Part shown: positions 11,220 through 60,060 of the stretch, piece after piece
Position numbering within the stretch: the first letter of the stretch is position 1
How the letters are laid out: every line of letters starts with the position of its first letter
Assembly (NCBI GenBank): GCA_005223035.1
Contig: NJBK01000007.1
Coordinates: 24,276 to 88,275, forward strand
Reading direction: 5' to 3'
DNA: 64,000 nucleotides
Source: Chloroflexi bacterium B3_Chlor
GTDB taxonomy: Bacteria > Chloroflexota > Anaerolineae > UBA7937 > B3-Chlor
Made by a program: the position numbers and the translations under genes
Notes under the pieces: generated by a model
The model's input: the letters and a program-made list of their open reading frames with translations, nothing else
Told to the model about the DNA's origin: nothing
Databases searched by the model: none

Positions 11220-11234
11220 AACCGACAACTTGAG

Positions 11235-16221: not shown

Positions 16222-16250
16222 TTGACTCCTGCACGATTCAGAGATATGAT
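16222..16250 (+). promoter_or_regulatory. Sigma70-type promoter for the radical SAM gene (TTGACT-N17-TATGAT)
   Basis: TTGACT 16222-16227 and TATGAT 16245-16250. In copy A the -10 is conserved but the -35 has decayed (TCGCGT). Confidence 0.55.
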
Positions 16251-16309
16251 TGTTTCATAGCTCGGGTTTCCTTCGGGAGTTGGGAGCCCCCCGGTGGGAG
16301 AAGTCTTCC

Positions 16310-22141: not shown

Positions 22142-22475
22142 CGCCGTCTGAGGACAACAGGCCGCCTTGCCGTCCTGTCTCCGTTTGACACAGAGCAGGG
22201 GCCAGAGGTGGCACCCGCGCCCCAGTGAATCTCCACTTTGTCCATCTTTCCCCACCTGGATTGTCAAGCTTTCCCGACAGACAAGGCCCGCAGTATCTGG
22301 TAAGCTGATGGAAAGAACTCGTGTCGCGGGCCCGAGCACTTCAACGGGACCGGGTGTGCGACGGCGGGCTCCATTCCTTGCTTTACCAGCGCTTATGACC
22401 GAGGACGACCCACTTCGCCCGTTGGACACAAATACCAAGGGTTCGCTCGGACACAGTATGGGCTGATCCTGGACA

Positions 22476-23150: not shown

Positions 23151-23202
23151 CAGAGAGTGTTCCTTTGCGCCGAAATCTAGACCTAGGAGGAGGCTGAGTG
23201 AG

Positions 23203-26076: not shown

Positions 26077-26089
26077 AGGAGGCTGATCC

Positions 26090-26842: not shown

Positions 26843-26856
26843 GAGGTAAGAGTACG

Positions 26857-28774: not shown

Positions 28775-29542
28775 CTACACGGTCGACTCAGAGTCAGACG
28801 ACTCCAGGTCCCCCAGTTCGTATAGAATCGCAGCCGCTGCCACCAGTCCTGCAGTCTCCGCTCGCAGGATACGAGGACCGAGAGTGATGGGGATTGCTCC
28901 GTAACGTTGGGCCTGCGTGAGTTCCTGCCGCGTGAAACCGCCCTCAGGCCCGATGAAGAGGTTGATGGAGAAGGGAGGCCGCTCCGCTGCCCTGAGGATG
29001 GAGCGAAGGCTTTGCTCCCGTTCTTCCTCCCAAGGGATCAGGGTCAATCCGCCGCGTGCGGCGTCTTCGCAGGCCGTGGGGAACAACACGGCCGGGCGCA
29101 GCGTGGGCAAGCGACCACGACGCGATTGCTCCGCCGCTTCCATCAGTATGCGGCACCATCGTTCTGTCTTGGTCTTGCTTATGTCCTCCAGGCTACCGAT
29201 GACGCAGCGCTCGGAGATCATGGGTACGAAGCCGACGATGCCCAACTGCGTGCCTTTCTGGAGTACCCACTCGAACTTGTTCAGCTTGAGCACGGCCTGA
29301 TAGAGACTGATCTTGGTACGGGGTTCGGCGGTCGCGAGGAACTTGTGCACGATCCGCCCTTCTATCCGTTGACTGGAGACGTTGGCTATCTCCACCTGGT
29401 GTTCCCAACCGGAGTTGTCTAGCAAGATAATGTGGTCCCGGGATTTGACGCGAAGGACATTTCTCAAGCGGTGCACAAGGGTGCCCGTGATGGTGACTTG
29501 CTCTTTCTCCAGCCAAGAGGCGGGCACGAAGAAACGATGCAT
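28775..29542 (-). CDS. rsmE: 16S rRNA (uracil1498-N3)-methyltransferase
   Basis: MHRFFVP....V.I.G...HRL.NVLRVK..D.I.L.D..G and the C-terminal SPOUT motif GPEGGF...E......G......LG.RILRAETA. I prefer the start at ATG 29542. Confidence 0.85.
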   Translation of the reverse strand: MHRFFVPASWLEKEQVTITGTLVHRLRNVLRVKSRDHIILLDNSGWEHQVEIANVSSQRIEGRIVHKFLATAEPRTKISLYQAVLKLNKFEWVLQKGTQLGIVGFVPMISERCVIGSLEDISKTKTERWCRILMEAAEQSRRGRLPTLRPAVLFPTACEDAARGGLTLIPWEEEREQSLRSILRAAERPPFSINLFIGPEGGFTRQELTQAQRYGAIPITLGPRILRAETAGLVAAAAILYELGDLESSDSESTV

Positions 29543-29550
29543 GATCAGAC

Positions 29551-30504
29551 TTACTCTCCCCTCACTTGGGATCGGATGGCTGGTCTGGACTTGGTCCCAC
29601 ATAACGTCACCCAGTCCTCCTCCTGCTGCCGGGCTGAGATCGCCATCCCAGCTCTGTCGAACGCGGCCCTTACGCTGAGCTCGGCAGACTCGATGATCCC
29701 TCCGGCGATGAGCCAGCCGCCCGGTTTGAGGTAAGACGTCAGGCCCTGTTGGATCATGTCGGCGACCACTTCGGCGAGGATGTTCATCGTGATACCATCC
29801 AGCGAAGGGACTGAGATCTCCCTGAGATCCATCAACGAACCATTTCTTACTTCTACCACATTCGCCAAGTCGTTGAGCGAAACGTTTCTACGGGCTACCT
29901 GGACAGCCGTGGGGTCGTTGTCCAGGGCGAGGACGCTCTCCGCACCCAGCCGGGCAGCAGCGATAGCCAGGATCCCGGAGCCAGTCCCCATGTCGAGCAC
30001 TGAGTCCCCGTGCGTAACACATTGCTCAAGATAAACGAGACACATGCGTGTCGTGGAGTGCAGGCCTGTGCCGAAGGCCATCCCTGGCTCCAGGTCGATC
30101 ACGACGTCATCTCTGGCGGGTGAGAAGTCTTGCTCGGTGAGCTTAATCACAAGCCGTCTTCCAATACGCTGAGGCTGAAAGTGCGATTTCCAGGCGTAGG
30201 CCCAGTCTTGCTCTTCTAGCTCTCTGAACTGGGGAGGTGTCAGATGGTACCGCTTGGCGAGGTCAGAGAGTTCGCTTTCGAGCGCACGACGTTGCGCATC
30301 ACAGGCGTTTGCCACGGGCAGGTAAGTCTTGACTCTGATGGGAGAAGAGGCACCGTTGGGCGCTTGGTGCTCATCGAGGAGAATCTGTTCCTGGACGGCG
30401 CCGCCTTGGCCATGGAGATCAAAGAGTGCGCAGACTGCCTCGGCCGTTTCTCTATCATCAACCCGAACGCTTATCTCCAGCCAGTTCAATCTTGAGGCCC
30501 TCAC
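29551..30504 (-). CDS. prmA: Ribosomal protein L11 methyltransferase
   Basis: ..WLEISV......E.V...F.......V and FGTG.H.TT..CL..L, VLD.GTGSGILAIAAA.LGA. GTG start. Confidence 0.9.
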   Translation of the reverse strand: MRASRLNWLEISVRVDDRETAEAVCALFDLHGQGGAVQEQILLDEHQAPNGASSPIRVKTYLPVANACDAQRRALESELSDLAKRYHLTPPQFRELEEQDWAYAWKSHFQPQRIGRRLVIKLTEQDFSPARDDVVIDLEPGMAFGTGLHSTTRMCLVYLEQCVTHGDSVLDMGTGSGILAIAAARLGAESVLALDNDPTAVQVARRNVSLNDLANVVEVRNGSLMDLREISVPSLDGITMNILAEVVADMIQQGLTSYLKPGGWLIAGGIIESAELSVRAAFDRAGMAISARQQEEDWVTLCGTKSRPAIRSQVRGE

Positions 30505-30695
30505 AGGTTGGCTCGCGCGGGCGCAGGTTTGTCTCCTCGTTAGCCCGATCTCCTCGAAGACACAGCTTGGGACTCAGCGGCATACCGCGCCGTTCAGCGG
30601 TCATTCGAAGCTACCTTGCGAAAAGAGGAAGGCTCGTCCTTGAAATCGCTGGACGCGATGACGGAATCATGGGGCTGGACACAAGATGATCTCTC

Positions 30696-31808
30696 CTACC
30701 TCAAGACATCCTTGAGGCGGTCAAAGAACCCCTTCTCGCCCTGGGGGATGACCTCCTTACCCAAGGTCTTGCCCAGTTCCTCGAATAGCTGGCGCTGCTC
30801 GGGCGTGAGTTTCTTTGGCGTTACGACGTACACTGTGACCAGTTGGTCTCCTCGCCCTTCACCTCTCAAGTAGGGTATACCCTTCTTGCGCAGGCGGAAG
30901 GTTTCGCCGGTTTGGGTGCCCGCAGGTATGACCAGCTCGTCTGTACCGTCCAGAGTGGGAACCTCTATCTCATCTCCCAGAGAGGCCTGAGCCACGTTGA
31001 TGGGCAGTTCCAGGAAGACATCGCCGTTGTGCCTCTTGAAGTAAGGGTGTTTCCGCACGGAAATGACCACGTACAGGTTGCCAGGCATGCCTCCCCTCAG
31101 GCCGGCCTGACCCTCGTCGGACAAACGGATCTGAGTGCCGCCGTCCACTCCGGGAGGCACCTCGATGGAGAGCCGCTTGGAGACCCGCACCTGCTTCTGG
31201 CCACGGCATTCGCTGCAGGGAGTACTTACCACCTCCCCTTCTCCGCCGCACCGCCCACAAGTGCTCACATTGACGAATGACCCGAAGACTGACTGCCGGA
31301 CGCGACGCACCTCTCCTGTTCCATTGCATTGAGGACAGCGAATCGGCTCAGTGCCCGGGTCGGCACCAGTGCCACGACAGACTGGACAGGTGTCTAACTT
31401 AGTAACCTCTATCTCTTTGTCACTACCGAAGGCTGCTTCCTCAAAGGTGAGGGTCAGGTCATACCTAAGGTCGGCACCTTTTTGGGGGGCTCGTCTGGCA
31501 GCGGTGCGCATCCCGCCGAATCCAAACAGGTCGTCGAAGATGTCGCCAAAGCCGAACCCTCCGAAGTCGGTGGTGAAGCCTCCTCCGGCGCCGACGTGGC
31601 CCCAACGATCGTATTCTGCCCGCTTTCTGCGGTCGCCTAGTGCCTCGTATGCCTCGTTGATCTCTTTGAATCGTTCTTCGGCGTCGGGAGACTTGTTGAG
31701 GTCAGGATGATACTCACGGGCCAACCGGTGGTAGGCCCGCTTGATCTCGGCGTCGCTGCTTGAGCGGCTGGCGCCGAGGACGGCGTAGTAGTCTCTCTTT
31801 CCTGTCAT
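30696..31808 (-). CDS. dnaJ: Chaperone DnaJ (class I, with zinc-finger domain)
   Basis: J domain with HPD, a G/F region and four CxxCxGxG motifs (CPVCRGTG, CPQCNGTG, CGRCGGEG, CSECRGQK). Confidence 0.95.
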   Translation of the reverse strand: MTGKRDYYAVLGASRSSSDAEIKRAYHRLAREYHPDLNKSPDAEERFKEINEAYEALGDRRKRAEYDRWGHVGAGGGFTTDFGGFGFGDIFDDLFGFGGMRTAARRAPQKGADLRYDLTLTFEEAAFGSDKEIEVTKLDTCPVCRGTGADPGTEPIRCPQCNGTGEVRRVRQSVFGSFVNVSTCGRCGGEGEVVSTPCSECRGQKQVRVSKRLSIEVPPGVDGGTQIRLSDEGQAGLRGGMPGNLYVVISVRKHPYFKRHNGDVFLELPINVAQASLGDEIEVPTLDGTDELVIPAGTQTGETFRLRKKGIPYLRGEGRGDQLVTVYVVTPKKLTPEQRQLFEELGKTLGKEVIPQGEKGFFDRLKDVLR

Positions 31809-31921
31809 GAACGATGAACCTGCTGGCTATCTGGCTCAGACAGCACAGTCTATTTGATAGCGACGAAAAAGGCAAGACAAGGGGCAGGGCAGCAAGCGCC
31901 CTACCCCCTCAAACTGTCGCG

Positions 31922-33823
31922 TTAGACCTCCCGGAACTCACCCTCGACAGTGCCCTCGTCCTCCTGCTCCGAGGGTCCAGCCTCCTCACCCGGGGGAGGA
32001 GGCGCGGCACCAGGCTGCTCATACATGGCGGCCCCTATCCTTTGCATCGACTCTGTCAATTCTTGCGTCTTGCGTCGGATCAAGTCCACGTCCTGACCTT
32101 TGAGTGCCTCGCGGACCGCGGCAGCCTTGGCTTCCACCTCGCTGCGCACATCGGCAGGTACCTTGTCGCCCAAGTCACGTAGTGTCTTGTCTGCCGAGTA
32201 GGCAGCCTGATCGGCGTGGTTGCGAGCTTCGATCTCCTCTTGCCGCCTGCGGTCCTCGGCCTCGTGCGTCTTGGCCTCGTCCATCATGCGCTTGATCTCT
32301 TCCTCGGTCAAGCCGCTGGAGGCGGTAATCGTGATGTGCTGCTCGCGTCCAGTGGCCTTGTCCTGGGCAGAGACCTCCAGGATGCCGTTGGAGTCCAGGT
32401 CAAAAGACACCTCTATCTGCGGAAGCCCCCTTGGGGCTGGCGGTATTCCGTCCAAGATGAACCGCCCCAGGGTCTTGTTGTCAGCCGCCATGGGCCGCTC
32501 TCCCTGCATGACGTGCACTTCCACACTAGTCTGTCCATCGGCGGCGGTGGAGAAGATCTGCGAACTGTGGTACGGAATGGTGGTGTTGCGAGGCACCAAC
32601 GGGGTTCCCACCCCACCCAGGGTCTCGATGCCCAACGTCAGAGGAGTGACATCGAGGAGTAGCACGTCCTTGACCTCACCGCCCAGCACCCCGGCCTGTA
32701 TGGCAGCGCCGAGCGCCACCACCTCATCGGGGTTGACGCCTTTGTGCGGGTCTGTGCCGAAGAACTTCTTGATCGCCTCCTGCACGGCAGGCATTCGCGT
32801 CTGGCCGCCAACGAGGATAACCTCGTCAATATCGGCCGTCGTCAGCTTGGCGTCCTCCAAAGCTTGTCGACAGGGAGGAATCGTCTGCTCGATAAGATCG
32901 CCCACCAATTGCTCCACCTTGGCCCTCGTGAGGGTCATCGTCAGATGCTTTGGACCGCTGGCGTCGGCGGTGATGAACGGCAGGTTGATCTCCGCCTGCA
33001 TCACCGTGGACAGCTCTACCTTGGCCTTCTCGGCAGCCTCCTTCAGGCGCTGGAGGGCCATGCGATCTTCGCGCAGGTTGATACCTTGCTCCTTCTTGAA
33101 CTCCTCGGCCACCCAGTCAATGAGGCGCTGGTCGAAGTCATCGCCGCCCAGGTGGGTGTCGCCGTTGGTGGACAGCACCTCGAACACTGGGGGATCTCCC
33201 GCCTCTATCTCCAGAATGGAGATGTCAAAGGTACCTCCGCCCAGGTCATAGACGGCGATCTTCTCATCCTTCCCCTTGGCCAGACCATAGGCCAGAGAGG
33301 AAGCCGTGGGCTCATTGATGATGCGCAGCACCTCCAGCCCCGCTATCCGACCAGCGTCCTTTGTGGCCTGGCGCTGCGAATCGTTGAAGTACGCGGGCAC
33401 GGTTATTACCGCCTGAGTGACGGTTTCCCCTAGATAGGCCTCCGCGTCCGCCTTGAGTTTCTGCAGAATGAAGGCCGATATCTCAGGAGGAGAGTACTCC
33501 TTGCCGCCCATGACCACCTTCGCGTCTCCATTAGGGGCCTCGGTGATCTTGTACGGGAGCAGTTCGATGTCACGCTGCACCGTGGAATCACTGTACTTGC
33601 GCCCCATGAGACGCTTGATGGAGAATATCGTGTTATCGGGGTTGGTGATGGACTGTCGCTTGGCCACCGTACCCACCATCCGCTCTCCTGTCTTGGAAAC
33701 CGCCACCACCGAAGGAGTCAATCGGCCACCCTCCGAGCTGGGGATGATCGTCGGCTCTCCTGCCTCAATGACTGCCACTCCAGAGTTAGTGGTTCCTAGG
33801 TCAATTCCAATAATCTTACCCAT
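31922..33823 (-). CDS. dnaK: Chaperone DnaK (Hsp70)
   Basis: [14 protein letters not shown]...DLGGGTFD...[11 protein letters not shown]. 633 aa. Confidence 0.97.
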
Positions 33824-33846
33824 GTTCTCAATTGTCCCCCTTTTGA

Positions 33847-34425
33847 TTACTCAGTCTGTTCCTTACTTTCATCAGTAGGTCTGGCTGCCACCCTTACCAT
33901 TGAGGGACGCAGCACTGTGTCATGCAGTGTGTATCCTTTCTGCAACTCGCTAATAATCTCGTCCTCTTCGTATTCCGTGGTCTCCTCACGGACCGCGGCA
34001 TGATGTAGTTCTGGGGCGAACTTCTTTCCCACTGTTTCGATCTCAGCTAGTCCTTCCTGCTCCAGTGTCATGCGCAGCCTGCGCTCTAACAGGAAAATGC
34101 CTTCGACCCACGTTAGGCCCTGCAAGTCGTCCGGCACGGTCTGCAAAGCCCGTTCGCAATCATCAAGGACGGGCAGCAGCTTGGCGATCAGTGCCGCATT
34201 GGCGAGGGTCACGAAATCCTCTCGCTCCCGCTCAATGCGCTTCTTGTAATTGGCAAACTCCGCCTGGGAGCGCTGCAACTGCTCTAGATATTCGGCAGCT
34301 TCAGCACTCGCCTTCGCCAATTCGTCTAGTTCCTCCTCGAGTTTCTCCTCGACACCTTTCTGTTCCACTTTCTCTTCCAATTGCTTTGTTACCTCCCCAG
34401 CGCTGTGTGGTCGACGGCTAGCCAC
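33847..34425 (-). CDS. grpE: Nucleotide exchange factor GrpE
   Basis: Coiled-coil N-terminus, then ..FANYKKR.ERE.......A....LLPVLD..ERAL and a C-terminal beta domain. The GTG start overlaps the hrcA stop. Confidence 0.9.
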
Positions 34426-35450
34426 TAAGTGTACCGGCCTTCCACAAGTCCGCTCATCAGGTGGGCCATGTAGCCTACCATCGGCACATTCTTGCTATAG
34501 GGCATACGGATTGGCCCCATGACCCCCAACACGCCGGTGGTCTGCCAGGCTGCCCCGTAGCGGGCGAGAACGAGGCTGAAATCGCTCATCTGCGGCCAGC
34601 GGTCCTCGCCTCCGATGATTACCTGAACTCCGGTGTGAGACAGGCCTACCTCAGCCAAGACGGATTCAAGATGGCCTGGTTCCTCGAGAACGCCCAGCAC
34701 CTTTTTCACCCTCTCTGTCTTGGCGAACTCCGGCTGTCTCAAGATGTGGGCGAAACCGTACCGATGCAACTCAAGGTCATGCCGCAGGTCGGCATCGTCC
34801 ATCAGCTCTGCCACGTGTTCGCCCACGGCTTCCTGGGCAGGCTTCAACTGTGAGGACTTGGTTCGAACCTCCTCACTGCTCAGATCCAGTAGGAGAGAGT
34901 TCAGTTCATCGGTTAGACGCTGTAGCGCCCTTGGAATGCGGCTGGCCTCCAGGCTTACGATTCGCCGCCTCATCGTTCCTTCCTGCAGCACTAGCGACAG
35001 AAGCACGTTCCCTTCGCTCACACGAACCAGTTCCAGGCGCTTGAAGCGCGAACGATGGGTTCTGGGTGCTGTGACCAGAGACGCCGTGCCTGCCTTGCTG
35101 GTCAGGATGGCCCCTGTCAGCCTTATCCATTGCTCTATATCCCTGTCCACCTGATGGAACTGATGCTCGATCATGCGTCGCTCGCTCAATGGCAAACCTG
35201 CTTCCTGCATCAGGTGCTCTACAAAGTACCGGTATCCCATCGCCGTCGGAATGCGACCCGCGGAGGTATGGGGATGGGTAAGATAGCCCAGTCCTTCCAG
35301 ATAGGCCATCTCTCCACGGACAGTGGCCGAGCTGACTCCGAGATCACTCCCCTCCACGGTCCTCTTCGAGCTGACTGGGGTGGCCGCATCTACGTATTCC
35401 CGAACTATGAAGTCCAGGATCGCCTCCTGTCTTTCGGTTAATCGCTCCAT
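34425..35450 (-). CDS. hrcA: Heat-inducible transcription repressor HrcA
   Basis: LTERQEAILDFIVREYVDAATPVSS..........VSSATVR.EMA.LE..GYL..PHTSAGR.PT. It is the first gene of a hrcA-grpE-dnaK-dnaJ-prmA-rsmE string. Confidence 0.92.
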   Translation of the reverse strand: MERLTERQEAILDFIVREYVDAATPVSSKRTVEGSDLGVSSATVRGEMAYLEGLGYLTHPHTSAGRIPTAMGYRYFVEHLMQEAGLPLSERRMIEHQFHQVDRDIEQWIRLTGAILTSKAGTASLVTAPRTHRSRFKRLELVRVSEGNVLLSLVLQEGTMRRRIVSLEASRIPRALQRLTDELNSLLLDLSSEEVRTKSSQLKPAQEAVGEHVAELMDDADLRHDLELHRYGFAHILRQPEFAKTERVKKVLGVLEEPGHLESVLAEVGLSHTGVQVIIGGEDRWPQMSDFSLVLARYGAAWQTTGVLGVMGPIRMPYSKNVPMVGYMAHLMSGLVEGRYT

Positions 35451-35493
35451 TCGTGCAGCTCCCGGAAGGGCTCAATCGTCCCCATGCACGGAA

Positions 35494-35520
35494 TTAGCAC
35501 TCTAACATGGAGAGTGCTAA
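35494..35520. promoter_or_regulatory. CIRCE operator (TTAGCACTC-N9-GAGTGCTAA), perfect consensus
   Basis: ttagcactc taacatgga gagtgctaa. It lies 44 nt upstream of the hrcA start and immediately downstream of the -10. Confidence 0.95.
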
Positions 35521-35530
35521 TTCTACCATA

Positions 35531-35559
35531 ATGATACCAGAAAATCGGTATTCTGTCAA
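35531..35559 (-). promoter_or_regulatory. Sigma70-type promoter of the dnaK operon (TTGACA-N17-TATCAT)
   Basis: On the minus strand TTGACA is + 35559-35554, followed by a 17-nt spacer and TATCAT at + 35536-35531. CIRCE follows 10 nt later. Confidence 0.7.
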
Positions 35560-35755
35560 ATACTGGTAAGGGGAGTGGTCAGCGCACGTGCAGGGAAGCA
35601 GGAGGCGGAGCTACCATTGTGGAGCCAGTCACGGAGTTTCCGTGTCTTCACAGGCACCGTGGGTGCGCAGTGACCACCGACACCAGGGAAGGTCTTGGAG
35701 CCCGTCTGGGTTTGGAGGATACTGATCCACAGGGGCAGCGTTGGCGCGCGGGCTG

Positions 35756-36502
35756 CTATCGCGCGGGGGAGTACACCCCCGTGAGTTCTGCCTGGGCCAA
35801 GATACGTCCTTCCATGGCTTCCAAGACCTGGGCCATGGTTGCCTCCGCCGGGAGGTCGAGGACTGTATCAAGGGCGTAGAGGGCGAAAATGTAGCCATGT
35901 GGGTTGCCCGGGCAGGGACCGTCATAGCCCATTCGGTTGATGAGCGCCCCACCTGGGAAGGTCTCCCCTTCTCCGACGAAGAGCGCGAAGTCGTTCGTTC
36001 CCTGAAGGGTGCCATCAGGTAAGCTGCCTTCTGCCGGCACGCCCTCGGGCAAGCCCTCACTGGTCGAAGGGATGTTGTAGACGACCCAGTGCACGAAGCC
36101 CGGCGGTTCAGAATCGGGATCGTCCAGGAGCAGAGCCATGCTTTGTGTCCCTTCAGGTACTCCTGACCACTCGAGCGGAGGTGACAGGTTTGCCCCATCG
36201 CAAGTGTATTGTAAGGGGATCTCTCCACCAGGCTCGAAGGCGCCACTGGAAATCTCCATCGGAGGCGCCGGCGTAGGCGATGCCGCCTCCTCTGCGGGCG
36301 TGACTCGGGTTGCCGTGGGTGGCACAGCTGTCGGCGTAGGCGATGCCGCTTCCTCCGCAGGCGTTACTGGGGTCGTCGAGGGCGGCACGGTTGTCGGTGT
36401 TGGTCCTTCGGGGGCTGCAGTGGGAGATGCGCCTGGGCCGCAGCCTGCTACAGCCAGGGTGACGAGAGCCACCGCAATAGGGAGCAAGACGGATCTTCTC
36501 AT
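35756..36502 (-). CDS. YbhB/YbcL (PEBP/Raf-kinase-inhibitor-like) family lipoprotein
   Basis: Lipobox MRRSVLLPIAVALVTLAVAGC, a Pro/Thr-rich linker, and a PEBP core (..IPLQYTCDG.N.SPPLEW.GVP....S.AL...DPD......FVHWV.YNIP....GYDGPCP....H.Y.F.LYALD). ATG 36502 with RBS GAGGAG. Confidence 0.85.
   Translation of the reverse strand: MRRSVLLPIAVALVTLAVAGCGPGASPTAAPEGPTPTTVPPSTTPVTPAEEAASPTPTAVPPTATRVTPAEEAASPTPAPPMEISSGAFEPGGEIPLQYTCDGANLSPPLEWSGVPEGTQSMALLLDDPDSEPPGFVHWVVYNIPSTSEGLPEGVPAEGSLPDGTLQGTNDFALFVGEGETFPGGALINRMGYDGPCPGNPHGYIFALYALDTVLDLPAEATMAQVLEAMEGRILAQAELTGVYSPAR
36270..36373. repeat. Tandem 63-bp duplication inside the PEBP linker (VTPAEEAASPTP x2)
   Basis: The 41-nt cores at 36270-36310 and 36333-36373 differ at 4 positions. 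Confidence 0.8.
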
Positions 36503-36657
36503 TTCTTGCTCCTCTAAGTACAATATGGTTTTGCCTCACGTGTCCGTAACCTTCACAGTCATGTGGGACGCAGTCTGGTCGGGAATGCCATCCTCAAGAG
36601 GCTCCGGTCCCTCTGACAGCCTCTCAAGCAGTTTGCATGACCAGGTCTTACCACGAC

Positions 36658-38157
36658 TCATGGCGCATAGCGCAACGGGTGGCGCGCGGCTTCCTTCTCA
36701 TGCAGCAGTTCATCCACAGAGGGTCGCCCTTCGATGGCCTTGCGGATGGCCGCCCGCATGGCTTTGTAGTTGTTGATGGCTATACGACGTCGGTTGGCCG
36801 CGGAGGGGTGCACGAAAGCATTGGCGATCATCACCAGGTCGTCCAAAGCCTCCTCAGGCAGGAAACCGTCAGCCAGGCTGGCATCGATAGCCATCACCAT
36901 CCCCTCGACTGCGTTCTCATAGATGTGGCGTGCCTGTTTCTTGGTGCGCACTGTGACCGTCGGCACCAGCAAGGTACGCGGCCGTTCGTAGATTATCTTC
37001 AACTGCGTCAGATCCTTACCCGATGGGTCTTCGGGCTTCGGCCTGGTTAGCGCCTCCTGGAGGGCCTTGCCAACGGGCCCATCCTCGACCCCTATGAGCA
37101 GGTCCACGTGGGCGACCTCGAAATCGGGGGGCCCGGCGTACCCCTCTCCCACCAGCATGGTGAAATCCTTCACTGTCGGAGGCGTCTGGCGTGTAGCAGG
37201 CACCTTGGTCTGCACCTTCCTGCCTTCGGAAAGGTCATACTCAACGCTCCGCGACGGGATCTTCCCCAGTTCCTCCAACTGCAGGCGCAGTTCCTCGTAG
37301 TCCTGTCGCCGGAAGGCGCCCCCGGGCATGATGGGGTGACGGGAGTTTCCCACCTGGATGCCCATCATGCCGAGCCCTTCCTTGGTAGCCTGAGTGGAAC
37401 CGCAGCGCACCACGATGCGCACCAACCGCTGGATTTGTCGCTGGCGCTCCTGAGCTTCCTCGATCTTGCCCCCCTTGACGTAGGTGTAGATCTCCTGCCA
37501 GATGTCGGGTATCAGGTTGGCGGTCGCCAGAATTGCGCCATCCGCCCCAGCGGCCAGGGCGGCCATCACTATTTCGTCGTGGCCGCAGATGATAGCGATC
37601 TGTCCCTTGACCTTCTCGAAGAGAGCCATCAGGAAGGGCACATCCCCACTGGAGTCCTTGATGCCCACCACGTTGTCCAGATAGGCCATCCCCTCGGCGG
37701 TCCACCATCTGTAGTGCGTACCTGCAGTTTGGGGGATGTTGTACAAGATGATGGGCAGGCCTACCTTGGACACCGCCTCATAGTGCTCGTACACCTCGTT
37801 GAAGGTGGGCTTGAGGTAGAAGGGCGCCACCACCAGGGCAGCGGCAGCCTTGGCGTCTCGAGCGTACTCCGTGAGGGCCACGGTATCCCTGGTGTTTGAG
37901 CAGCCCGTCCCCGCGATGACCGGTACGCGGCCCGCCACCTCGTCGATGGTGATGTCGATGACGCGCCGTTTCTCTGCCTCCGACAGATACACGAACTCGC
38001 CAGTGGTGCCTACAGGCACCACGGCGTTGATATGGGGCAATACGTGCCGGATCAGGCGCCGCATCGCCTCTTGGTCAATCTCCTCTTCGGCGGTGAACGG
38101 CGTGACGAGTGCGGGGATGATCCCCTTCAGCCAATCCGGTTTGTTGGCCATCTTCAT
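36658..38157 (-). CDS. Fusion protein 1: DapA/NAL-family class I aldolase (N-terminal) :: formaldehyde-activating-enzyme (Fae)-like domain (C-terminal)
   Basis: N-terminal motifs: LVTPF, GTTGEF, APFYLKP, LYNIPQT, VVGIKDSSGD (Schiff-base Lys). Residues ~333-495 align by eye with Fae (LVGEGYAG...FEVAHVDLLIG...DDLVMIANAFVHPSA...NNYKAMRAAI...RHPL). RBS AGGAGG favours the second ATG at 38151. Confidence 0.8.
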   Translation of the reverse strand: MKMANKPDWLKGIIPALVTPFTAEEEIDQEAMRRLIRHVLPHINAVVPVGTTGEFVYLSEAEKRRVIDITIDEVAGRVPVIAGTGCSNTRDTVALTEYARDAKAAAALVVAPFYLKPTFNEVYEHYEAVSKVGLPIILYNIPQTAGTHYRWWTAEGMAYLDNVVGIKDSSGDVPFLMALFEKVKGQIAIICGHDEIVMAALAAGADGAILATANLIPDIWQEIYTYVKGGKIEEAQERQRQIQRLVRIVVRCGSTQATKEGLGMMGIQVGNSRHPIMPGGAFRRQDYEELRLQLEELGKIPSRSVEYDLSEGRKVQTKVPATRQTPPTVKDFTMLVGEGYAGPPDFEVAHVDLLIGVEDGPVGKALQEALTRPKPEDPSGKDLTQLKIIYERPRTLLVPTVTVRTKKQARHIYENAVEGMVMAIDASLADGFLPEEALDDLVMIANAFVHPSAANRRRIAINNYKAMRAAIRKAIEGRPSVDELLHEKEAARHPLRYAP

Positions 38158-38222
38158 CGCCTCCTGGAAGGTACGAGGGGTCGGTCAGACGGTCGCCTGT
38201 GACACCTCACCTGCTCTTCGCA

Positions 38223-38423
38223 CTATTGACGGCTGTGGGTGGCAATGAACCGCTCGAGGGACCGGTCATAGGTCCTTTCTACATCTGGCGGGAAAAGGCA
38301 TGCCGGGAGTTCGCGATGGCCCCAGTGATACTCGATGCACTCACAGCAGATGCCCTTGCGGCTGCACGACTCGTAGGTGCACGCGCACGCCGCCTTGTTT
38401 TCTTCCACCTTACATTCTCTCAT
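38223..38423 (-). CDS. Cys-rich 66-aa protein (8 Cys, 3 His); resembles an uncharacterised DUF-type small cytoplasmic protein
   Basis: [60 protein letters not shown]. It is tightly packed between the two fusion genes, with gaps of 30 and 65 nt. Confidence 0.65.
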
Positions 38424-38453
38424 GCTACCTCCTAGAAATGGTTGTCTCCAACC

Positions 38454-39878
38454 CTAAGCTTCAAATGCCATCCTGATCGCGCTGTCCATGGCCGCTCGTA
38501 CCTTGGCGTACAATTGGTGTCGATCCAGGGCCCTGGGGTGGATGGTGGCCTTGGCGATCATGAGCTTATCGTCCAAGGTATCTGGGGGGATGATCTTCTC
38601 CTCGATGTTGTCGAGAATCGCTTTGGCTACTGCCGCCTGGGTAGGACCATATACCATGCTGGCCTGACGGAGATTCACCAGTTCGACCGTCGGCACGATG
38701 AGCGTCGAGGGCTTGACCGTCAGGTTGGGCTCAGCGATGGTGGTCAGCGCTTCGTAGCCATGGCTGGGGTGGGTGAGTTGTCTGGCGTAGGCCTCACCTA
38801 CGGGGCCGCCCTTGGGTCCGACAATCAGATCAATGCCTACCGTCTCTGGATCTTCTCCTTCAGTGGCGCTTCCCAAGAGAATGCCGTTGGACTCGATCAT
38901 CTCGACGGTAATACCGATGTCGGTGAATCTGTGTGCCAGGGGTCCCTCAGGCATGGCCCAGCTCATCTCCTGGGGCTGTATCTTGCCCAGCTTCTCCAAC
39001 TCAAGCTGGATCTCTGCTCTGGTCTCGTGGATCATGGCGCCGCCGACCGGCTTGAGAGGACGCCGTGGGCGACCCACCTTGACCCCCATCATGTTCAGGG
39101 CTGCCTTGACAGCGACTCCACCTCCATGGCGAACGAAGATACGGGCCAGCTTTTGCACCTTCAGTTGGAGCTTGCGGGCGGCCTTGAGATCACCTTGCTG
39201 TACCTTGCGAAATAGGTCCTGCCATATCTCGGGGAAGACCTGAGCACTAGCTAGGATCATGCCGCGACAGCCGCCCGCCAAGGTCGGCAATACCACCTCG
39301 TCATGGCCCACCAGCACATCAAGGCGGCCTTGGGTCATTTCCAACACCTCCATGGTGTAAGGCAGATCGCCGGATGAGTCCTTGAGTCCTACGATGTTCT
39401 CGATCTCGCTCAGGTCTTCCAGGACTTGGCGCGATATGTAGGCATCCACGGTCTGAGGGATGTTGTAGAGGATGATAGGCAGGTCCACCGCCCTGGCTAC
39501 CTCGTAGAAGTGTTGGTAGATGCCTTTGTCAGACGGATGAAGGAAGTACGGCGCAACCACCAGACAAGCGGCGGCCCCGGCTTGCTCAGCGTGACGGGCC
39601 AGTTGGATCGCCTCACGGGTAGAGGCTGCGCCGGTGCCGGCAATGACCGGCATCTCATCGCTCACCTCATCTATGCAGACCTCCAGCACCTGCCGGCGTT
39701 CGGCGTGGGACATATTGACGAACTCGCCAGTGGTGCCGCAAGGAACGACGCCGTCCACGTGGGGCCGAACGAAGCGCAACAAGTTCCGGAGCGCCTCTTC
39801 GTCTATTCTGTCATCCCTGGTGAACGGAGTAACCAGCGCAGGGTTGACGCCGCCTGGGCGATATCTCTCGTGTGTCAT
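38454..39878 (-). CDS. Fusion protein 2: DapA/NAL-family class I aldolase :: Fae-like domain (paralogue of 36658-38157)
   Basis: LVTPF, GTTGEF, APYFLHP, LYNIPQT, IVGLKDSSGD. C-terminal domain: ETVGIDLIVGPKGGPVG...HGYEALTTIAEPNLTVKPSTLIVPTV...DDKLMIAKATIHP. I prefer the start at ATG 39878 (RBS GAGGTG, 6-nt spacer) over the track start 39923. Confidence 0.8.
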   Translation of the reverse strand: MTHERYRPGGVNPALVTPFTRDDRIDEEALRNLLRFVRPHVDGVVPCGTTGEFVNMSHAERRQVLEVCIDEVSDEMPVIAGTGAASTREAIQLARHAEQAGAAACLVVAPYFLHPSDKGIYQHFYEVARAVDLPIILYNIPQTVDAYISRQVLEDLSEIENIVGLKDSSGDLPYTMEVLEMTQGRLDVLVGHDEVVLPTLAGGCRGMILASAQVFPEIWQDLFRKVQQGDLKAARKLQLKVQKLARIFVRHGGGVAVKAALNMMGVKVGRPRRPLKPVGGAMIHETRAEIQLELEKLGKIQPQEMSWAMPEGPLAHRFTDIGITVEMIESNGILLGSATEGEDPETVGIDLIVGPKGGPVGEAYARQLTHPSHGYEALTTIAEPNLTVKPSTLIVPTVELVNLRQASMVYGPTQAAVAKAILDNIEEKIIPPDTLDDKLMIAKATIHPRALDRHQLYAKVRAAMDSAIRMAFEA

Positions 39879-40223
39879 CTTCAGCACCTCTGACGGTATG
39901 GAGTCGATTTTGTGCGCGCACATTGATGCCCAAGAGCCGCTTGACCCTGGGCGATCTCTCGTTGATTCGAGCCGACCGTTCTGGAGGGTCTAACCGTGCG
40001 GACGCGACATGTGCTGAGGCGCGAGGAGTCACTCTTCCGTGTGCGGGAGATGCGACGCAAGAACGCGCCTCTTGTGAGGGCCACCCCGAAGCTGGGTTCT
40101 GAATAGCCCTCGATGCACTGTTCTCCAGACGGTGGGCCAGGCAATGCCTCAGCCAGGGTATGGAAGGATGGCAGGTCAAAAGCAGACGCAGCGCAGGCGA
40201 TGATCGCCGGGCCATCACCGATC

Positions 40224-41471
40224 CTACCTACGAGAGCTCTGAGCGAACTTGACCGGGATGCCTCTCTTCATATATTCCACGGCGTGTTTGGTGCATTGGA
40301 GGGTCTTGTAGTAGATGACATCTCCGATCTTGAGCGCATTTGCCGTCCTCTGCTTATCCGAGAGAAAGTAGGCTTCCATCGTATCCAATTCCCTGCCCTG
40401 GCCATCGCTCTCGTACTTGAAGGTCAGGTCACGCCCGCTTTCCAGGACCTTGATTGAGTCGTCGTACCAGTTGAAGTCAGGCCGTCCCAGATCGGGGTTG
40501 ATCAGGATGTGCGCGGCCAGGTCCACGCCTTTGATGCCGCTCTCCTGAAGTTCCCGGCTGCATTTGATGAAATTCTCCGCTGATACCCCGTTGCCAATGT
40601 TGATCTCCCGGATGGGACTCGTCATGTCATCCCTGAGGTATTCGTTCATGATGTTCAGGAGCATCCTGAACTGCATCAGGTTCTGGGTGGCGAGCATCAT
40701 CGAAATCTTGATGTAGAGATTGGGGATATCCCGCCCATAATAGCAGATGGCGATTACGGTGCTCCAACTTGGATTGAGGAAGAAGTTCGCACCGGTGGTC
40801 TTGGCGGCACGGGTTATGCCGTCGAGATAGACCAGATGATTGTCGTTTGCTACCTCGATCCCCCCGAAGTTCCCGAAGAAGGTCCCCTGATTCTTCAGGA
40901 CGAGTTGGACTAAACCGTCGCCTGCAGGCTCGGTTTCAAGCTCCACCCCGGTCACTCTCTCTATGTCTGCAAACCTCTTTTCGGGCAAGGGGGTCCCGAT
41001 CAAGTTGGTCGTACAAAACCAGGCGACCCTCATAATGCTCTCAGCCATGGCGAGGGTAGCCATCAGATTGCCGTTGTATACGTAGTCCTCAGTGAGAGCC
41101 ACCACGGAGATCATCTCGGCGGGCACAAAGACTGGCACTTCGCTGGAAGCGCTCTCAGCGATCCTTTGCATGCAGCGGTGAGTAACCCTTGCGCCCTGAA
41201 ATCCTGAGACTTGAGAGGTCGCTATTCCCATCTCCTTCTCATAGGCGATGTTGTTTGCCTCCTCGAAATCCTCCACCTTGGCGAATCTCTTGACCAGCTC
41301 CTCGGCCTCGTCGATCATCGCGCCATACTCAGTTTCCGCGAGGATCTTCTTCCTGGTCTCGAAATCCCTCACGTTCTCGATGGTCTCAGCTATTCGTTGG
41401 GCTCCCCCGTGGGATTCCTTCAAGGAGTCCATGGCCTTCATGTCGCTGGCTAACAGTAGTTTGAATCTCAT
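40224..41471 (-). CDS. Conserved-looking hypothetical protein, 415 aa, no family recognised
   Basis: The long ORF has protein-like composition (MRFKLLLASDMKAMDSLKE...FFLNPSWSTVIAICYYGRDIPNLYIKISMMLATQNLMQFRMLLNIMNEYL...). ATG 41471 with RBS GGGAGAAGG. The track start 41810 would overlap the divergent gene and its promoter. Confidence 0.6.
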   Translation of the reverse strand: MRFKLLLASDMKAMDSLKESHGGAQRIAETIENVRDFETRKKILAETEYGAMIDEAEELVKRFAKVEDFEEANNIAYEKEMGIATSQVSGFQGARVTHRCMQRIAESASSEVPVFVPAEMISVVALTEDYVYNGNLMATLAMAESIMRVAWFCTTNLIGTPLPEKRFADIERVTGVELETEPAGDGLVQLVLKNQGTFFGNFGGIEVANDNHLVYLDGITRAAKTTGANFFLNPSWSTVIAICYYGRDIPNLYIKISMMLATQNLMQFRMLLNIMNEYLRDDMTSPIREINIGNGVSAENFIKCSRELQESGIKGVDLAAHILINPDLGRPDFNWYDDSIKVLESGRDLTFKYESDGQGRELDTMEAYFLSDKQRTANALKIGDVIYYKTLQCTKHAVEYMKRGIPVKFAQSSRR

Positions 41472-41697
41472 GATGGTACCTTCTCCCGGGTGAAATCCTA
41501 CAAGTTCGGACCGGTAAGCGTTGAGGAACCGCCGATCGTGACGATCAGCTACCAAGTGCGTTACCATGTGCTTGGCACCGCCCCTCCACGCACCTTGGAA
41601 CGCGCAAGGCTTATGATACCATCTTTCCCTTACGGAGTCAAAATCAGACCGAGAAGGGCTAGCTTTTTCGTCTAGCCTATAGTATGATAGCAAAGCT

Positions 41698-42732
41698 ATG
41701 TGGAAGAGAGGCAGATTCTGGTTGGGGATCGTGATCAGCATCCTTTTTCTTCTGTACGCTCTCAAAGGCCAGAGGCTACCAGAAGTCTGGCAGGGGCTGC
41801 GAGGTGCCAACTACTGGTGGTTCATTCCCGGCGTTGTGGTCTATTTTGGTGCCGTCTGGTTGCGCACATATCGCTGGCACTACCTGTTGCGACCAATCAA
41901 GCATCTCCCCGTGCGCTCCTTGTTTCCAGTAGTAACCATCGGGTACATGGGCAACAACATCTTTCCCTTCAGAGCCGGGGAGGTAATCCGCGCCTACGTG
42001 CTGAAGAGGAAAGAGGGTGTTAGTGCGAGCGCGAGCTTGGCTACAATACTGGTGGAACGCATCTTTGACGGCATAACGATGCTGGTTTTCGTTTTTGCCG
42101 TTCTCCCCCTGGTCCCGACCAACGAGTTTCTGGGCCAACTCCTAGCGTTTATGAGCTTTTTGTTCTTCGGAGCCTTGTTCGCTTTCCTGCTCATTGCCTC
42201 CTCCTCACGGAGGACAGAACGAGTGTACCAGTGGCTTGTGACCCACTTGGTGCCTCATCGCTTACGAGACCAGGTAGCAGGTCTCTTGGAGAGGTTCGTG
42301 GAGGGGCTGCAAGTTCTCAGGAGTGGCCGAGACATGCTTTTCGTCATGGGGATCTCGGTCCTTCTATGGCTAGTGGAGGCGTGGAAGTACTGGTTTGTGA
42401 TGCAGGGCTTCGCTTTCGACCAGCCTTTCTACGTTCTGGTCTTCACTTGTGCCATAGTCAATCTGGCCACCGCGATTCCTTCCACACCAGGGTACCTGGG
42501 TACGTTCGAGGTGTCAGGCATAGAAAGCCTGGTCTTATTTGGTGTGGCCAGGCACAGCGCGACCAGCTTCATGTTGGCGCTGCATGCCGCCTTGTGGTTC
42601 CCCATCACTGCTCTCGGTGCGTACTTTGCCTGGCGGGAAAGCATCAGTTGGGGGGAGATGGAAGGACTTCGAGTCTCGGAGAGGGAATCGGCAGCGACTG
42701 TAGCAGCTCTGCATAAGGACATGTCACGGTGA
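41698..42732 (+). CDS. UPF0104/LPG-synthase-TM (flippase-like) family membrane protein
   Basis: Polytopic, with the motif ..RWHYLLRP.......LF.VV.IGYMGNNI.PFRAGE..RAY.L..... Confidence 0.75.
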   Translation: MWKRGRFWLGIVISILFLLYALKGQRLPEVWQGLRGANYWWFIPGVVVYFGAVWLRTYRWHYLLRPIKHLPVRSLFPVVTIGYMGNNIFPFRAGEVIRAYVLKRKEGVSASASLATILVERIFDGITMLVFVFAVLPLVPTNEFLGQLLAFMSFLFFGALFAFLLIASSSRRTERVYQWLVTHLVPHRLRDQVAGLLERFVEGLQVLRSGRDMLFVMGISVLLWLVEAWKYWFVMQGFAFDQPFYVLVFTCAIVNLATAIPSTPGYLGTFEVSGIESLVLFGVARHSATSFMLALHAALWFPITALGAYFAWRESISWGEMEGLRVSERESAATVAALHKDMSR

Positions 42733-59879: not shown

Positions 59880-60060
59880 AGTTGGCACCTCCTATTCGCT
59901 GCTCTTATTCTAGCGCCTTGGCGCAGCACCCGCAAGCTACTCATATGCCAAGCCTCCCGCGGGTCTCGGAAACCCACGGGAGGCTCTCTACATCGAAGAT
60001 GTGGTGGCGATTGTCTTTCTCCCGCTCAAGATGCGCGGTCTGTGGGTGTTGGAAAGAGAT

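Follow-up and report, generated by a model that had tools for sequence, protein, structure and literature searches.

A conserved pair of aldolase::Fae-like fusion proteins in Anaerolineae that divide the Fae hallmarks between them

Two neighbouring genes in the window (the whole stretch of 64,000 nucleotides analysed here) encode paralogous fusion proteins, AF1 and AF2, in which a class I aldolase of the DHDPS fold is followed by a domain related to formaldehyde-activating enzyme (Fae). The pair recurs across Anaerolineae, and the hallmark residues of Fae are divided strictly between its two members. We tentatively propose, as a possible rather than a probable reading, that AF2 and AF1 together make up a hydroxymethyl aldolase for 2-oxo acids, heteromeric and comparable to Fae-Hps or PanB. 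In agreement with the original prediction, which knew of no characterised aldolase::Fae fusion, no paper describing one was found in the literature, nor any on the enzyme proposed here.

Results

According to the ORF list, positions 36658-41471 of the window hold four co-directional ORFs on the minus strand, encoding AF1, a mini-protein, AF2 and a 415-aa protein. The features are:

36658..38157, minus strand: AF1, DHDPS-fold class I aldolase plus Fae-like domain, 499 aa
36661..37152, minus strand: AF1 Fae-like domain, aa 336-499
37153..37269, minus strand: AF1 inter-domain segment, aa 297-335
37270..38130, minus strand: AF1 aldolase domain, aa 10-296
38223..38423, minus strand: 66-aa Cys-rich DUF6485 mini-protein with its own AGGAGG ribosome-binding site
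38454..39878, minus strand: AF2, 474 aa, ATG preceded by a GAGGTG ribosome-binding site
38457..38873, minus strand: AF2 Fae-like domain, aa 336-474
39879..40223, minus strand: spacer between the 415-aa gene and AF2, about 300 nt
40224..41471, minus strand: 415-aa protein, TIM barrel, no Pfam or NCBIfam match
41613..41641, minus strand: sigma-70-like promoter match, TTGACT-17-TATCAT with TG upstream (consensus match only)

Counted from its second methionine (Met3), AF1 is 497 aa long, which agrees with its homologues. For AF2, an in-frame ATG upstream, at 39923, would give a protein of 489 aa. The promoter match precedes the 415-aa gene by about 140 nt. The spacer has no match in Rfam and shows no conservation in close relatives.

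AF1 and AF2 are 41% identical to each other and share the same architecture. That both are fusions of a DHDPS fold with a Fae fold, as predicted, is borne out far beyond chance by the Pfam domain search: AF1 matches PF00701 (DHDPS) with E = 4e-70 (aa 10-279) and PF08714 (Fae) with 3e-33 (aa 336-495, model positions 1-158 of 159), and AF2 matches them with 3e-75 and 1e-38, its Fae match covering model positions 2-139 of 159, so that this domain is C-terminally truncated. The PF08714 scores are 115.6 (AF1) and 133 bits (AF2) versus a cut-off of 27, and those for TIGR03126 (NCBIfam one_C_fae) are 134.3 and 131.8 bits versus 118.05. A homologue search found the fusion to be real and recurrent. It is common to all 120 homologues among the matches listed, which rules out the assembly or frameshift artefact that had been named as one refuting case, and it is carried by 52 species-level genomes, mostly Anaerolineae. 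In 39 of the 52 loci, AF2 and AF1 are adjacent or nearly so, at AF1 identities as low as 56%. Of the other 13 loci, nine stop no more than about 1.6 kb upstream of AF1. Three others (L012, L022 and L029), with at least 3 kb of upstream sequence, carry AF1 without an adjacent AF2, which counts against a heteromer. The four genes had been presented as one module; the AF2-AF1 pair is indeed general, but the mini-protein and the 415-aa gene are not fixed partners of it.

The aldolase signature was said to be intact, and the motifs GTTGEF, AP(F/Y)(Y/F)L.P, LYNIPQ and G(I/L)KDSSGD are found in AF1 and AF2 alike. The Schiff-base lysine of G(I/L)KDSSG, the two threonines of GTTGE and the tyrosine of YNIP are invariant across the orthologues of both, so that the barrel features corresponding to Lys161, Thr44/Thr45 and Tyr133 of DapA are all present. 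In the AlphaFold monomer model of AF1 (pLDDT 85.8, pTM 0.84), the N-terminal domain superposes on DHDPS structures with a TMt of 0.92 and an rmsd of about 2 Å. The segment of some 35 aa that had been described as a linker is variable in sequence (42% mean identity among orthologues), and it is modelled as a β-hairpin and not as a loose tether. A structured connector of this kind, together with a pTM of 0.84 for the two-domain chain, suggests that the model's domain arrangement is fixed.

The original prediction credited both proteins with a full-length Fae domain. However, its list of Fae motifs is a composite of the two, and neither protein carries the full set: VAH(I/V)DL and NNY.A are found in AF1 alone, as is the terminal HP(F/L), and HG(Y/F) and EPNLTV(K/R)P in AF2 alone. 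In AF1, the equivalent of His22 (in VAHVDL) is kept together with Asp24, Phe119, NNY and, as the C-terminal arm, ...RHP(L/F)RYAP; His47-Gly-Phe, Gln88 and the PNL loop of five residues are missing. AF2 keeps His47, EPNLTV(K/R)P, Gly85-Pro86 and Gln88. The locus thus encodes not two full Fae enzymes but two domains that hold complementary halves of the Fae hallmarks. This division is maintained among orthologues. His22 and the arm HP(F/L)RYAP are each present in 41 of 41 AF1 orthologues, all 41 have the PNL loop deleted, and Gln88 is replaced by Ala, Val or Thr. Conversely, His47, PNL and Gln88 are each present in 27 of 27 AF2 orthologues, His22 is replaced by Gln, Gly or Ala in all 27, and the C-terminal arm is deleted in 26. 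No AF1 or AF2 orthologue combines His22 with all of the pterin-site elements in one polypeptide.

In Fae of M. extorquens, the pterin is reportedly bound between neighbouring subunits, His22 is said to be the proposed acid catalyst, and binding reportedly rearranges Gln88 and the C-terminal arm. The strict reciprocal split seen in 41 AF1 and 27 AF2 orthologues suggests a heteromer with a composite site. Mean identity is 64-68% for the Fae-like domains versus 72-76% for the aldolase domains, about 40% of the Fae-like columns are at least 95% identical, and no segment is more conserved than the C-terminal arm of AF1 (80%). Judged from these alignments, both Fae-like domains are under strong purifying selection, and a level of conservation so close to that of the aldolase domains argues for a working site and not for a vestige.

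The 415-aa protein had been called an orphan. It has no sequence match in PDB, Pfam or NCBIfam, and its best Foldseek matches are generic barrels (TMq at most 0.35); with 1194 homologues at E<=1e-3, however, it is uncharacterised and not an orphan. It is modelled (pLDDT 91) as a (β/α)8 TIM barrel that carries a helical bundle at its N-terminus. It also has a mobile loop rich in Gly (aa 196-206), and Lys255 (IKIS), His321 and Lys352/Glu354 are invariant. In other lineages, a deep-branching and very distant relative, C4, lies directly upstream of AF2 (hhalign probability 85%, E = 6e-6, 327 colinear columns), with FKIS as the counterpart of the IKIS strand. AF2 is thus directly preceded by a TIM-barrel partner that comes in two highly divergent forms. 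In some lineages an unrelated 316-aa protein (C10) takes the place of the 415-aa gene. Elsewhere, in other phyla, the barrel family neighbours aminotransferases together with hom, thrC, thrB-like and dapA genes, or ilvE and panB. The hom/thr and panB neighbours are enzymes of homoserine and ketopantoate, two natural 4-hydroxy-2-oxo-acid branches.

The mini-protein belongs to DUF6485 (PF20095, 7e-9, 36.6 bits versus a gathering score of 24), and all of its 877 homologues carry PF20095. Its gene stands beside the AF pair in the closer lineages only, and DUF6485 proteins are widespread in unrelated contexts elsewhere. It is a widespread accessory protein.

No gene of H4MPT, methanofuran or folate C1 metabolism was found among the recurrent neighbours of the 52 loci or among the scanned ORFs of the window, which comprise all but about 20 small ones; within that scope, the earlier statement that the window has no H4MPT-pathway gene holds. 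This negative result weighs against the proposed pterin-dependent chemistry. Genes for Fsa/transaldolase, a xylose-isomerase-like TIM protein and NUDIX proteins recur near the AF loci, many of which sit among housekeeping genes.

Discussion

The databases annotate these proteins as DapA, and the AF pair could be the 4-hydroxy-tetrahydrodipicolinate synthase of this lineage, with the Fae-like domain being regulatory or structural. TIGR00674 (dapA) scores best of all models for AF1 and AF2 alike, and the latter exceeds its cut-off of 206.15 (229.7 bits). Among solved structures, DapA enzymes are the nearest; five loci have an LL-diaminopimelate aminotransferase gene close to the pair (in L032 directly downstream), and the housekeeping surroundings of many loci would also fit. 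We nevertheless regard this as improbable. AF1 falls under the same cut-off (203.1 bits), and Arg138 of E. coli DapA, which binds the carboxylate of aspartate semialdehyde, is missing as had been claimed: its position is held by Cys or Thr in the 41 AF1 and by Val or Thr in the 27 AF2 orthologues, with Arg in none of the 68. Moreover, GHDE, invariant in both paralogues, stands where DapA has GDD, and neither the existence of two conserved paralogues nor the conserved Fae catalytic histidine would be explained. The GHDE motif is similar to GYDE of sialic-acid lyase (N-acetylneuraminate lyase), a motif in contact with sugar hydroxyls, and this likeness is a hint that the aldehyde may be hydroxylated and larger than formaldehyde. 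The pair may be an aldolase for 2-keto-3-deoxy sugar acids, or some other pyruvate lyase with a hydroxylated aldehyde as substrate, with the Fae-like domains serving for oligomerisation, scaffolding or aldehyde handling without pterin chemistry. The lack of C1 genes among the scanned ORFs and recurrent neighbours and the recurrence of the Fsa/transaldolase, xylose-isomerase-like and NUDIX genes are consistent with this, as is a sugar-acid-dehydratase-like gene of the enolase superfamily that follows the pair in L040 and L049 (best match galactonate dehydratase, 174 bits, below cut-off), a classic pairing of dehydratase and DHDPS-family aldolase. Yet this neighbour is present in two of 52 loci only, and the nanA models (TIGR00683, 158 and 146 bits versus 382; NF003164, 177 and 174 bits versus 281) and the KDG-aldolase and KdgD models all score AF1 and AF2 far below their cut-offs. 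A mere scaffold would also not be expected to keep His22 strictly in AF1, and Gln88 and PNL strictly in AF2, under such high constraint. On balance we consider this explanation rather unlikely.

The genomic company of the barrel family raises another possibility, namely that the AF pair is a non-homologous replacement of PanB, converting 2-oxoisovalerate to ketopantoate via methylene-pterin, while the TIM barrel is the next enzyme of the pantoate pathway, for example ketopantoate reductase. The barrel gene is immediately followed by panB in L060, L090 and L143 and lies between ilvE and panB in L058, L059, L087 and L143. In Anaerolineae the AF pair takes the position held by panB in those loci, and the PanB reaction is formally a Fae half-reaction plus an aldol addition. 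On the other hand, panB contexts are a minority (about 7 of 89 barrel loci, against 42 with a class I aminotransferase). DHDPS-family enzymes use pyruvate, with its unbranched C3, and a tertiary enamine from 2-oxoisovalerate would be unusual, so that we think this very improbable. Finally, since each Fae-like domain alone lacks hallmark residues, one paralogue might be a dead pseudo-enzyme, with aldolase function being all that matters and the Fae-like domains being decaying remnants of an ancient fusion. This is highly unlikely: the losses are reciprocal and do not fall on a single copy, both domains show strong conservation over about 40 species-level lineages, and every catalytic residue checked is kept in both aldolase domains.

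For the heteromeric hydroxymethyl aldolase we infer the heteromer, its composite site, the C1 carrier, which 2-oxo acid is used and which way the reaction runs. The enzyme would work as follows. AF2 and AF1 would be subunits of one bifunctional enzyme, and the Schiff-base barrel of each would activate pyruvate or a close 2-oxo acid. The Fae-like domains, whose AF1-retained and AF2-retained residues presumably lie on opposite faces, would associate to form a single complete Fae-type site at the AF1/AF2 interface, with AF1 contributing His22 and the C-terminal arm and AF2 the PNL loop, His47 and Gln88. Formaldehyde and a reduced pterin would be bound there. The net reaction would interconvert a 2-oxo acid plus methylene-pterin (or free HCHO) with a 4-hydroxy-2-oxo acid plus pterin, in the likeliest case pyruvate with 4-hydroxy-2-oxobutanoate. 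Pyruvate and formaldehyde, or 4-hydroxy-2-oxobutanoate, are candidate substrates of the pair and our best single hypothesis, to which the homoserine/threonine and panB neighbours of the barrel family in other phyla lend indirect support. The upstream TIM-barrel protein may act in the same pathway, either supplying its 2-oxo acid or processing it further.

A more specific proposal, which we consider unlikely, is that Anaerolineae possess a natural formaldehyde- or methylene-pterin-dependent pyruvate hydroxymethylase, heteromeric and with a composite Fae-type site, that makes 4-hydroxy-2-oxobutanoate and, with the TIM-barrel family and aminotransferases, forms an aspartate-independent route linking C1 units and pyruvate with homoserine and threonine. 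If true, the engineered "homoserine cycle" would have a counterpart in nature.

Comparison with known systems

The proposed enzyme would be a class I counterpart to the archaeal Fae-Hps fusion and, in its reaction, to PanB. Fae-Hps (NF009833), of methanogenic and other archaea, is a 5,6,7,8-tetrahydromethanopterin hydro-lyase / 3-hexulose-6-phosphate synthase and likewise joins a Fae-family domain to a C-C lyase able to release or consume formaldehyde. The match of the AF proteins to it is limited to the Fae part (model positions 2-161 of 392; 93 and 113 bits versus a cut-off of 274). Its Fae domain is N-terminal and its partner the OMPDC-fold Hps, whereas in the AF proteins the Fae-like domain is C-terminal and is joined to a pyruvate-type class I aldolase of the DHDPS fold. 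The AF system also differs from Fae-Hps in comprising two fusions, paralogues that have lost Fae features reciprocally, and in occurring in bacteria, where no H4MPT genes were seen in the neighbourhood.

Stand-alone Fae of Methylorubrum extorquens (PDB 1Y5Y/1Y60) shares fold and sequence family with the AF domains (1y5y, E = 4e-20 and 5e-22), but it is not fused to an aldolase and holds the full motif set, of which AF1 shares His22 and the arm, and AF2 His47, the PNL loop and Gln88. Fae is a homopentamer. Five identical sites of that kind are unlikely for the AF proteins, and since an alternating heteromer cannot be a pentamer, their quaternary structure would have to differ.

With DapA and the DHDPS/NAL family (PF00701), the AF proteins share the TIM barrel, the Schiff-base lysine, the threonines of GTTGE and the tyrosine of YN(I/V)P; they differ from DapA in lacking Arg138, in having GHDE for GDD, and in the structured hairpin and 160-aa extra domain after the barrel. 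PanB (3-methyl-2-oxobutanoate hydroxymethyltransferase) resembles the proposed AF chemistry, transferring a formaldehyde-level C1 unit from methylene-pterin to C3 of a 2-oxo acid, and both have the 415-aa TIM-barrel family as a genomic partner. PanB is metal-dependent and single-domain and has no sequence relationship to the AF proteins, so that the likeness would be one of function only.

Gene content and domain assignments

The cluster consists of four genes, in which AF1 and AF2 are two paralogous aldolase-Fae fusion proteins (41% identical over the full length):

36658-38157, minus strand: AF1, ORF of 499 aa
38223-38423, minus strand: Cys-rich mini-protein of 66 aa, with its own AGGAGG ribosome-binding site
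38454-39878, minus strand: AF2, 474 aa counted from the ATG after GAGGTG
40224-41471, minus strand: ORF of a 415-aa protein, referred to below as the barrel

The aldolase and Fae domains originally predicted in both large proteins are confirmed. The Pfam DHDPS model matches AF1 at 4e-70 and AF2 at 3e-75, the Fae model matches them at 3e-33 and 1e-38, and both exceed the cut-off of the NCBIfam Fae equivalog-domain model. The mini-protein belongs to Pfam family DUF6485; neither Pfam nor NCBIfam has a match for the 415-aa protein. The 415-aa gene is preceded by a promoter-like site. Between the cluster genes, no terminator-like hairpin was found on the minus strand. A riboswitch or other conserved RNA is not supported: positions 35400-42000, including the 300-nt spacer, contain no Rfam match at E<=1, and the spacer shows no conservation among seven close loci. 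The Rfam yield of eight related loci is limited to tRNAs and one skipping-rope RNA.

Distribution of the fusion genes

All of the 120 best AF1 homologs (JGI, NCBI, ENA and Logan assemblies) contain PF00701 and PF08714 together, and the only names they carry are 'DapA' or 'formaldehyde-activating enzyme'. A scan of one genome per species detected 52 AF loci, the majority in Anaerolineae or Chloroflexota metagenome-assembled genomes (MAGs) and a few in bins labelled Myxococcales, Aerophobetes, Thermodesulfobacteriota or Proteobacteria. The original prediction had named separate genes for the two domains in related genomes as a sign of an assembly or frameshift artifact. Such an artifact is rejected on the fused architecture of the 120 best homolog clusters, from independent sources, and of the 52 genomes. 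The closest locus, L001 (93% identity), has PEBP and hrcA genes downstream, as does the window.

By tblastn, AF2 lies 5′ of AF1 in 39 of the 52 loci, at AF1 identities as low as 56%. In 9 of the remaining 13 the contig stops at most ~1.6 kb upstream of AF1; L012, L022 and L029 have no adjacent AF2 although at least 3 kb of upstream sequence is present. The mini-protein is found between AF2 and AF1 only where AF1 identity is at least ~65%, and the 415-aa gene was detected by tblastn only in the closest AF lineages. The general part of the module is the AF2-AF1 pair alone, and the four-gene neighborhood raised in the original prediction is not conserved.

The other neighbors of AF loci are mainly housekeeping genes (MetRS, SerRS, CTP synthase, MurJ, HflX, DapL), with sporadic Fsa upstream and NUDIX downstream. 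In two non-Chloroflexi MAGs (L040:1893-4567 and L049:8891-11631), AF1 is followed by an enolase-superfamily (MR_MLE) dehydratase-like gene and an MttB-family (non-Pyl trimethylamine-type) methyltransferase; L049 also has an additional DHDPS-like gene resembling neither DapA nor AF. In three loci (L023:5482-6366, L024 and L025:3537-4403), a xylose-isomerase-like TIM protein is encoded between AF2 and AF1. It scores 136.5 bits against the NCBIfam model of CbiR, a cobamide-remodelling phosphodiesterase (cut-off 105). Between this CbiR-like gene and AF1 lies a skipping-rope RNA (RF02924, L023:7005-7110, minus strand, 43.8 bits, above the gathering score).

Aldolase domains

The catalytic aldolase signature is intact, as originally read: the Schiff-base Lys, both Thr of GTTGE and the Tyr of LYNIP are kept in both paralogs. 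The predicted replacement of the DHDPS-specific Arg also holds across orthologs, the position of E. coli DapA Arg138 never being Arg in 41 AF1 and 27 AF2 proteins. A heterodimer cannot be argued from complementarity of Tyr106 and Tyr107 across the DHDPS tight dimer: both paralogs carry Phe107 at several loci, and the two positions, being variable and non-complementary between paralogs, are uninformative on this point.

The AlphaFold model of AF1 (pLDDT 85.8, pTM 0.84) comprises a DHDPS barrel, a β-hairpin connector (aa 302-320), a Fae-like α/β domain and a low-confidence C-terminal arm. With this model Foldseek matched the DHDPS barrel alone, to DapA or NAL structures (TMt 0.92), and returned no solved structure with both aldolase and Fae-like domains.

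Reciprocal split of Fae features

The same 41 AF1 and 27 AF2 orthologs were aligned to M. extorquens Fae. The Fae motifs originally listed are present; the list had, however, merged two different halves, one from AF1 and one from AF2.

Fae features in AF1 and AF2 orthologs (M. extorquens Fae numbering)
His22: AF1, kept in 41/41; AF2, Gln, Gly or Ala in 27/27
Asp24: AF1, kept; AF2, kept
His47: AF1, Pro in 37/41; AF2, kept in 27/27
PNLxx loop: AF1, deleted in 41/41; AF2, EPNLTV(K/R)P in 27/27
Gly85-Pro86: AF1, lost; AF2, kept
Gln88: AF1, Ala, Val or Thr; AF2, kept in 27/27
Phe119: AF1, kept; AF2, Thr or Ala
NNY: AF1, kept; AF2, lost
C-terminal arm ...HP(F/L)RYAP: AF1, kept in 41/41; AF2, deleted in 26/27

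The alignment shows the Fae features partitioned between AF1 and AF2, and neither chain has the complete set. Fae reportedly binds methylene-H4MPT between adjacent subunits. Its proposed acid catalyst is reportedly His22, and binding is reported to rearrange Gln88 together with the C-terminal arm. The constraint on both Fae-like domains nearly equals that on the aldolase domains: mean identity among orthologs is 68% and 64% for the former and 72% and 76% for the latter, and identity reaches at least 95% in ~40% of columns. Conservation peaks in the AF1 C-terminal arm (80%), and the connector is variable (42%).

The 415-aa barrel family

The 415-aa protein, originally called an orphan, has 1194 homologs, all of them unnamed. 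Identity is 65-70% even in MAGs of Cloacimonetes, Phycisphaerae and Armatimonadetes, and an exhaustive phmmer search gave only about four full-length representatives at 50% identity, indicating a compact family with few divergent members. AlphaFold confidently predicts a (β/α)8 barrel (pLDDT 91, pTM 0.92), preceded by a helical bundle at the N-terminus and carrying a mobile Gly-rich loop. Foldseek retrieved only generic TIM barrels (TMq <=0.35), among them the pyruvate carboxylase CT domain, class I and II aldolases, enolase-superfamily members and type I dehydroquinase.

In more distant AF lineages, a 422-aa protein (C4) is encoded directly upstream of AF2. Profile-profile comparison aligned C4 with the barrel over 327 colinear columns (probability 85%, E 6e-6), with FGG, LN, (I/F)KIS, RDDxT, HI and KxE as common motifs, showing C4 to be a remote homolog of the barrel. 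Neither has sequence relatives in PDB. A three-tRNA cluster lies immediately upstream of the C4 gene in these lineages (L033:4359-4635; L034:4874-5155). In seven other loci (L017, L019, L021, L023-L025 and L027; for example, L023:1981-2931) the slot held elsewhere by the TIM barrel is occupied by a 316-aa protein, C10, 83-97% identical between lineages. C10 has no match in Pfam, NCBIfam or PDB, and neither these nor hhalign supports its homology to the barrel; its FKVS motif recalls IKIS of the barrel.

Barrel contexts outside Anaerolineae were counted over 89 loci. A LysN/KAT-II-like class I aminotransferase (best PDB matches PH0207 and LysN) immediately follows the barrel in 42 of them. Beyond it are found homoserine dehydrogenase (24 loci), SDR (12), aldehyde dehydrogenase (10), threonine synthase (10), aldehyde:ferredoxin oxidoreductase (9) and a proposed ApgM-type homoserine kinase (6). 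An AsnC/Lrp regulator lies upstream of the barrel in 12 loci. Among loci L053-L146 the barrel heads operons with the LysN-like aminotransferase, hom, thrC, thrB-like, and ALDH or AOR genes. It lies between ilvE and panB in L058, L059, L087 and L143, and panB directly follows it in L060, L090 (then asnA) and L143. Locus L056 has thrB and a canonical dapA; the latter cannot be taken for an unfused AF gene, since its product carries the GRT Arg and scores above the cut-off for dapA.

These neighbors link the barrel to the interconversion of 2-oxo acids and amino acids, in both the aspartate-homoserine and the valine-pantoate branch. The branch-specific 2-oxo acids are 4-hydroxy-2-oxobutanoate and its 3,3-dimethyl analog ketopantoate, both hydroxymethylated. 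The contexts lend circumstantial support to the AF pair having a hydroxymethyl-aldol role; they would also fit a barrel simply supplying oxaloacetate or another 2-oxo acid. The family is a separate lead, being a conserved enzyme family without functional annotation that merits its own characterization.

Mini-protein and wider neighborhood

DUF6485 proteins (64-70 aa, Cys-rich) from Anaerolineae, Dehalococcoidia and Thermoplasmata archaea share 70-80% identity. A dedicated partnership with the fusion proteins was rejected, as their neighbors elsewhere (L147-L150) are unrelated: NUDIX, dCMP deaminase, and radical SAM with ROK and Rnf. The mini-protein, probably metal-binding, is treated as accessory and not as a defining part of the module.

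As originally noted for H4MPT genes, none occur among the ~45 window ORFs scanned; the same holds for folate, pantothenate and threonine genes. The AF cluster is directly followed on its own strand by hrcA-grpE-dnaK-dnaJ-prmA-rsmE, with dnaK and grpE assigned from position and translation. Proteostasis genes are unusually concentrated at 2030-14568 and 28775-35450, including Lon, a DnaJ-like protein and two ClpB paralogs (8610-11219 and 12100-14568).

The window also contains anaerobic redox genes. Those at 23143-27999 resemble a Psr/Nrf-like complex, with a molybdopterin oxidoreductase catalytic subunit of 977 aa, an ORF of 250 aa and a membrane subunit of NrfD type. At 60937-63456 (minus strand), an 839-aa fusion protein has an Fe-S N-terminus, NuoG/HydA-like, followed by an NfnB/GltD-like flavoprotein. 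In PDB it comes closest to subunits of Nfn-type complexes and of electron-bifurcating formate dehydrogenase. Other genes encode a B12-binding radical SAM protein (16250-17728), a UPF0182 membrane protein (57207-59888, 975 bits) and a 307-aa protein without a PDB sequence match (21713-22636).

Discussion

The best-supported reading, which we hold tentatively, is that AF1 and AF2 form a heteromeric bifunctional enzyme for C1 exchange. Each AF1/AF2 interface, whose geometry we infer, would hold one composite Fae-type site, coupled to two class I pyruvate-type aldolase barrels; C3 of a 2-oxo acid and a reduced pterin would exchange a formaldehyde-level C1 unit. Strict reciprocal partition is expected if one competent site forms at this interface. 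A decaying domain would not show it, and a pseudo-enzyme remnant, to which the incomplete feature set of each chain might point, is very improbable.

It is rather unlikely that the pair is a pyruvate lyase, for sugar acids or otherwise, whose Fae-like module does without pterin. The invariant GHDE of AF1 and AF2, where DapA has GDD, resembles GYDE of sialic-acid lyase; the scores of both proteins against the NCBIfam nanA, KDG-aldolase and KdgD models are far under the cut-offs. We give a low probability to a divergent DapA: AF2 (229.7) is above the NCBIfam dapA cut-off of 206.15 and AF1 (203.1) narrowly below it, and the diagnostic Arg is replaced throughout. Replacement of PanB appears slightly less probable again.

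A literature search found no published description of an aldolase-Fae fusion, in line with the original prediction, and no relevant work on DUF6485 or PF08714. In public databases AF proteins bear only automatic, mutually inconsistent names, and the labels 'DapA' and 'Fae' are probably both wrong. This affects how the metabolism of Anaerolineae abundant in sediment and sludge is reconstructed, and with it counts of 'fae' as a methylotrophy or methane-cycle marker. Cooperation of the two halves would make the AF pair the first class I pyruvate aldolase with a coupled C1-carrier site, and a bacterial, probably H4MPT-independent use of the Fae fold. The pair would then also offer formaldehyde-to-C4 assimilation a natural template; synthetic-methylotrophy efforts now assemble this route from promiscuous aldolases. 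One active site divided reciprocally between fused paralogs would be a clean example of a heteromer evolving from a homo-oligomer.

Fae fused to a C-C lyase is a known theme, to which a split-site paralog pair and a new TIM-barrel partner family are added here. The chemistry proposed for the AF pair is like that of Fae-Hps and PanB, but the pair belongs to neither family. It differs from DapA in lacking Arg138, and from Fae in that the features of a single Fae chain are divided over two.
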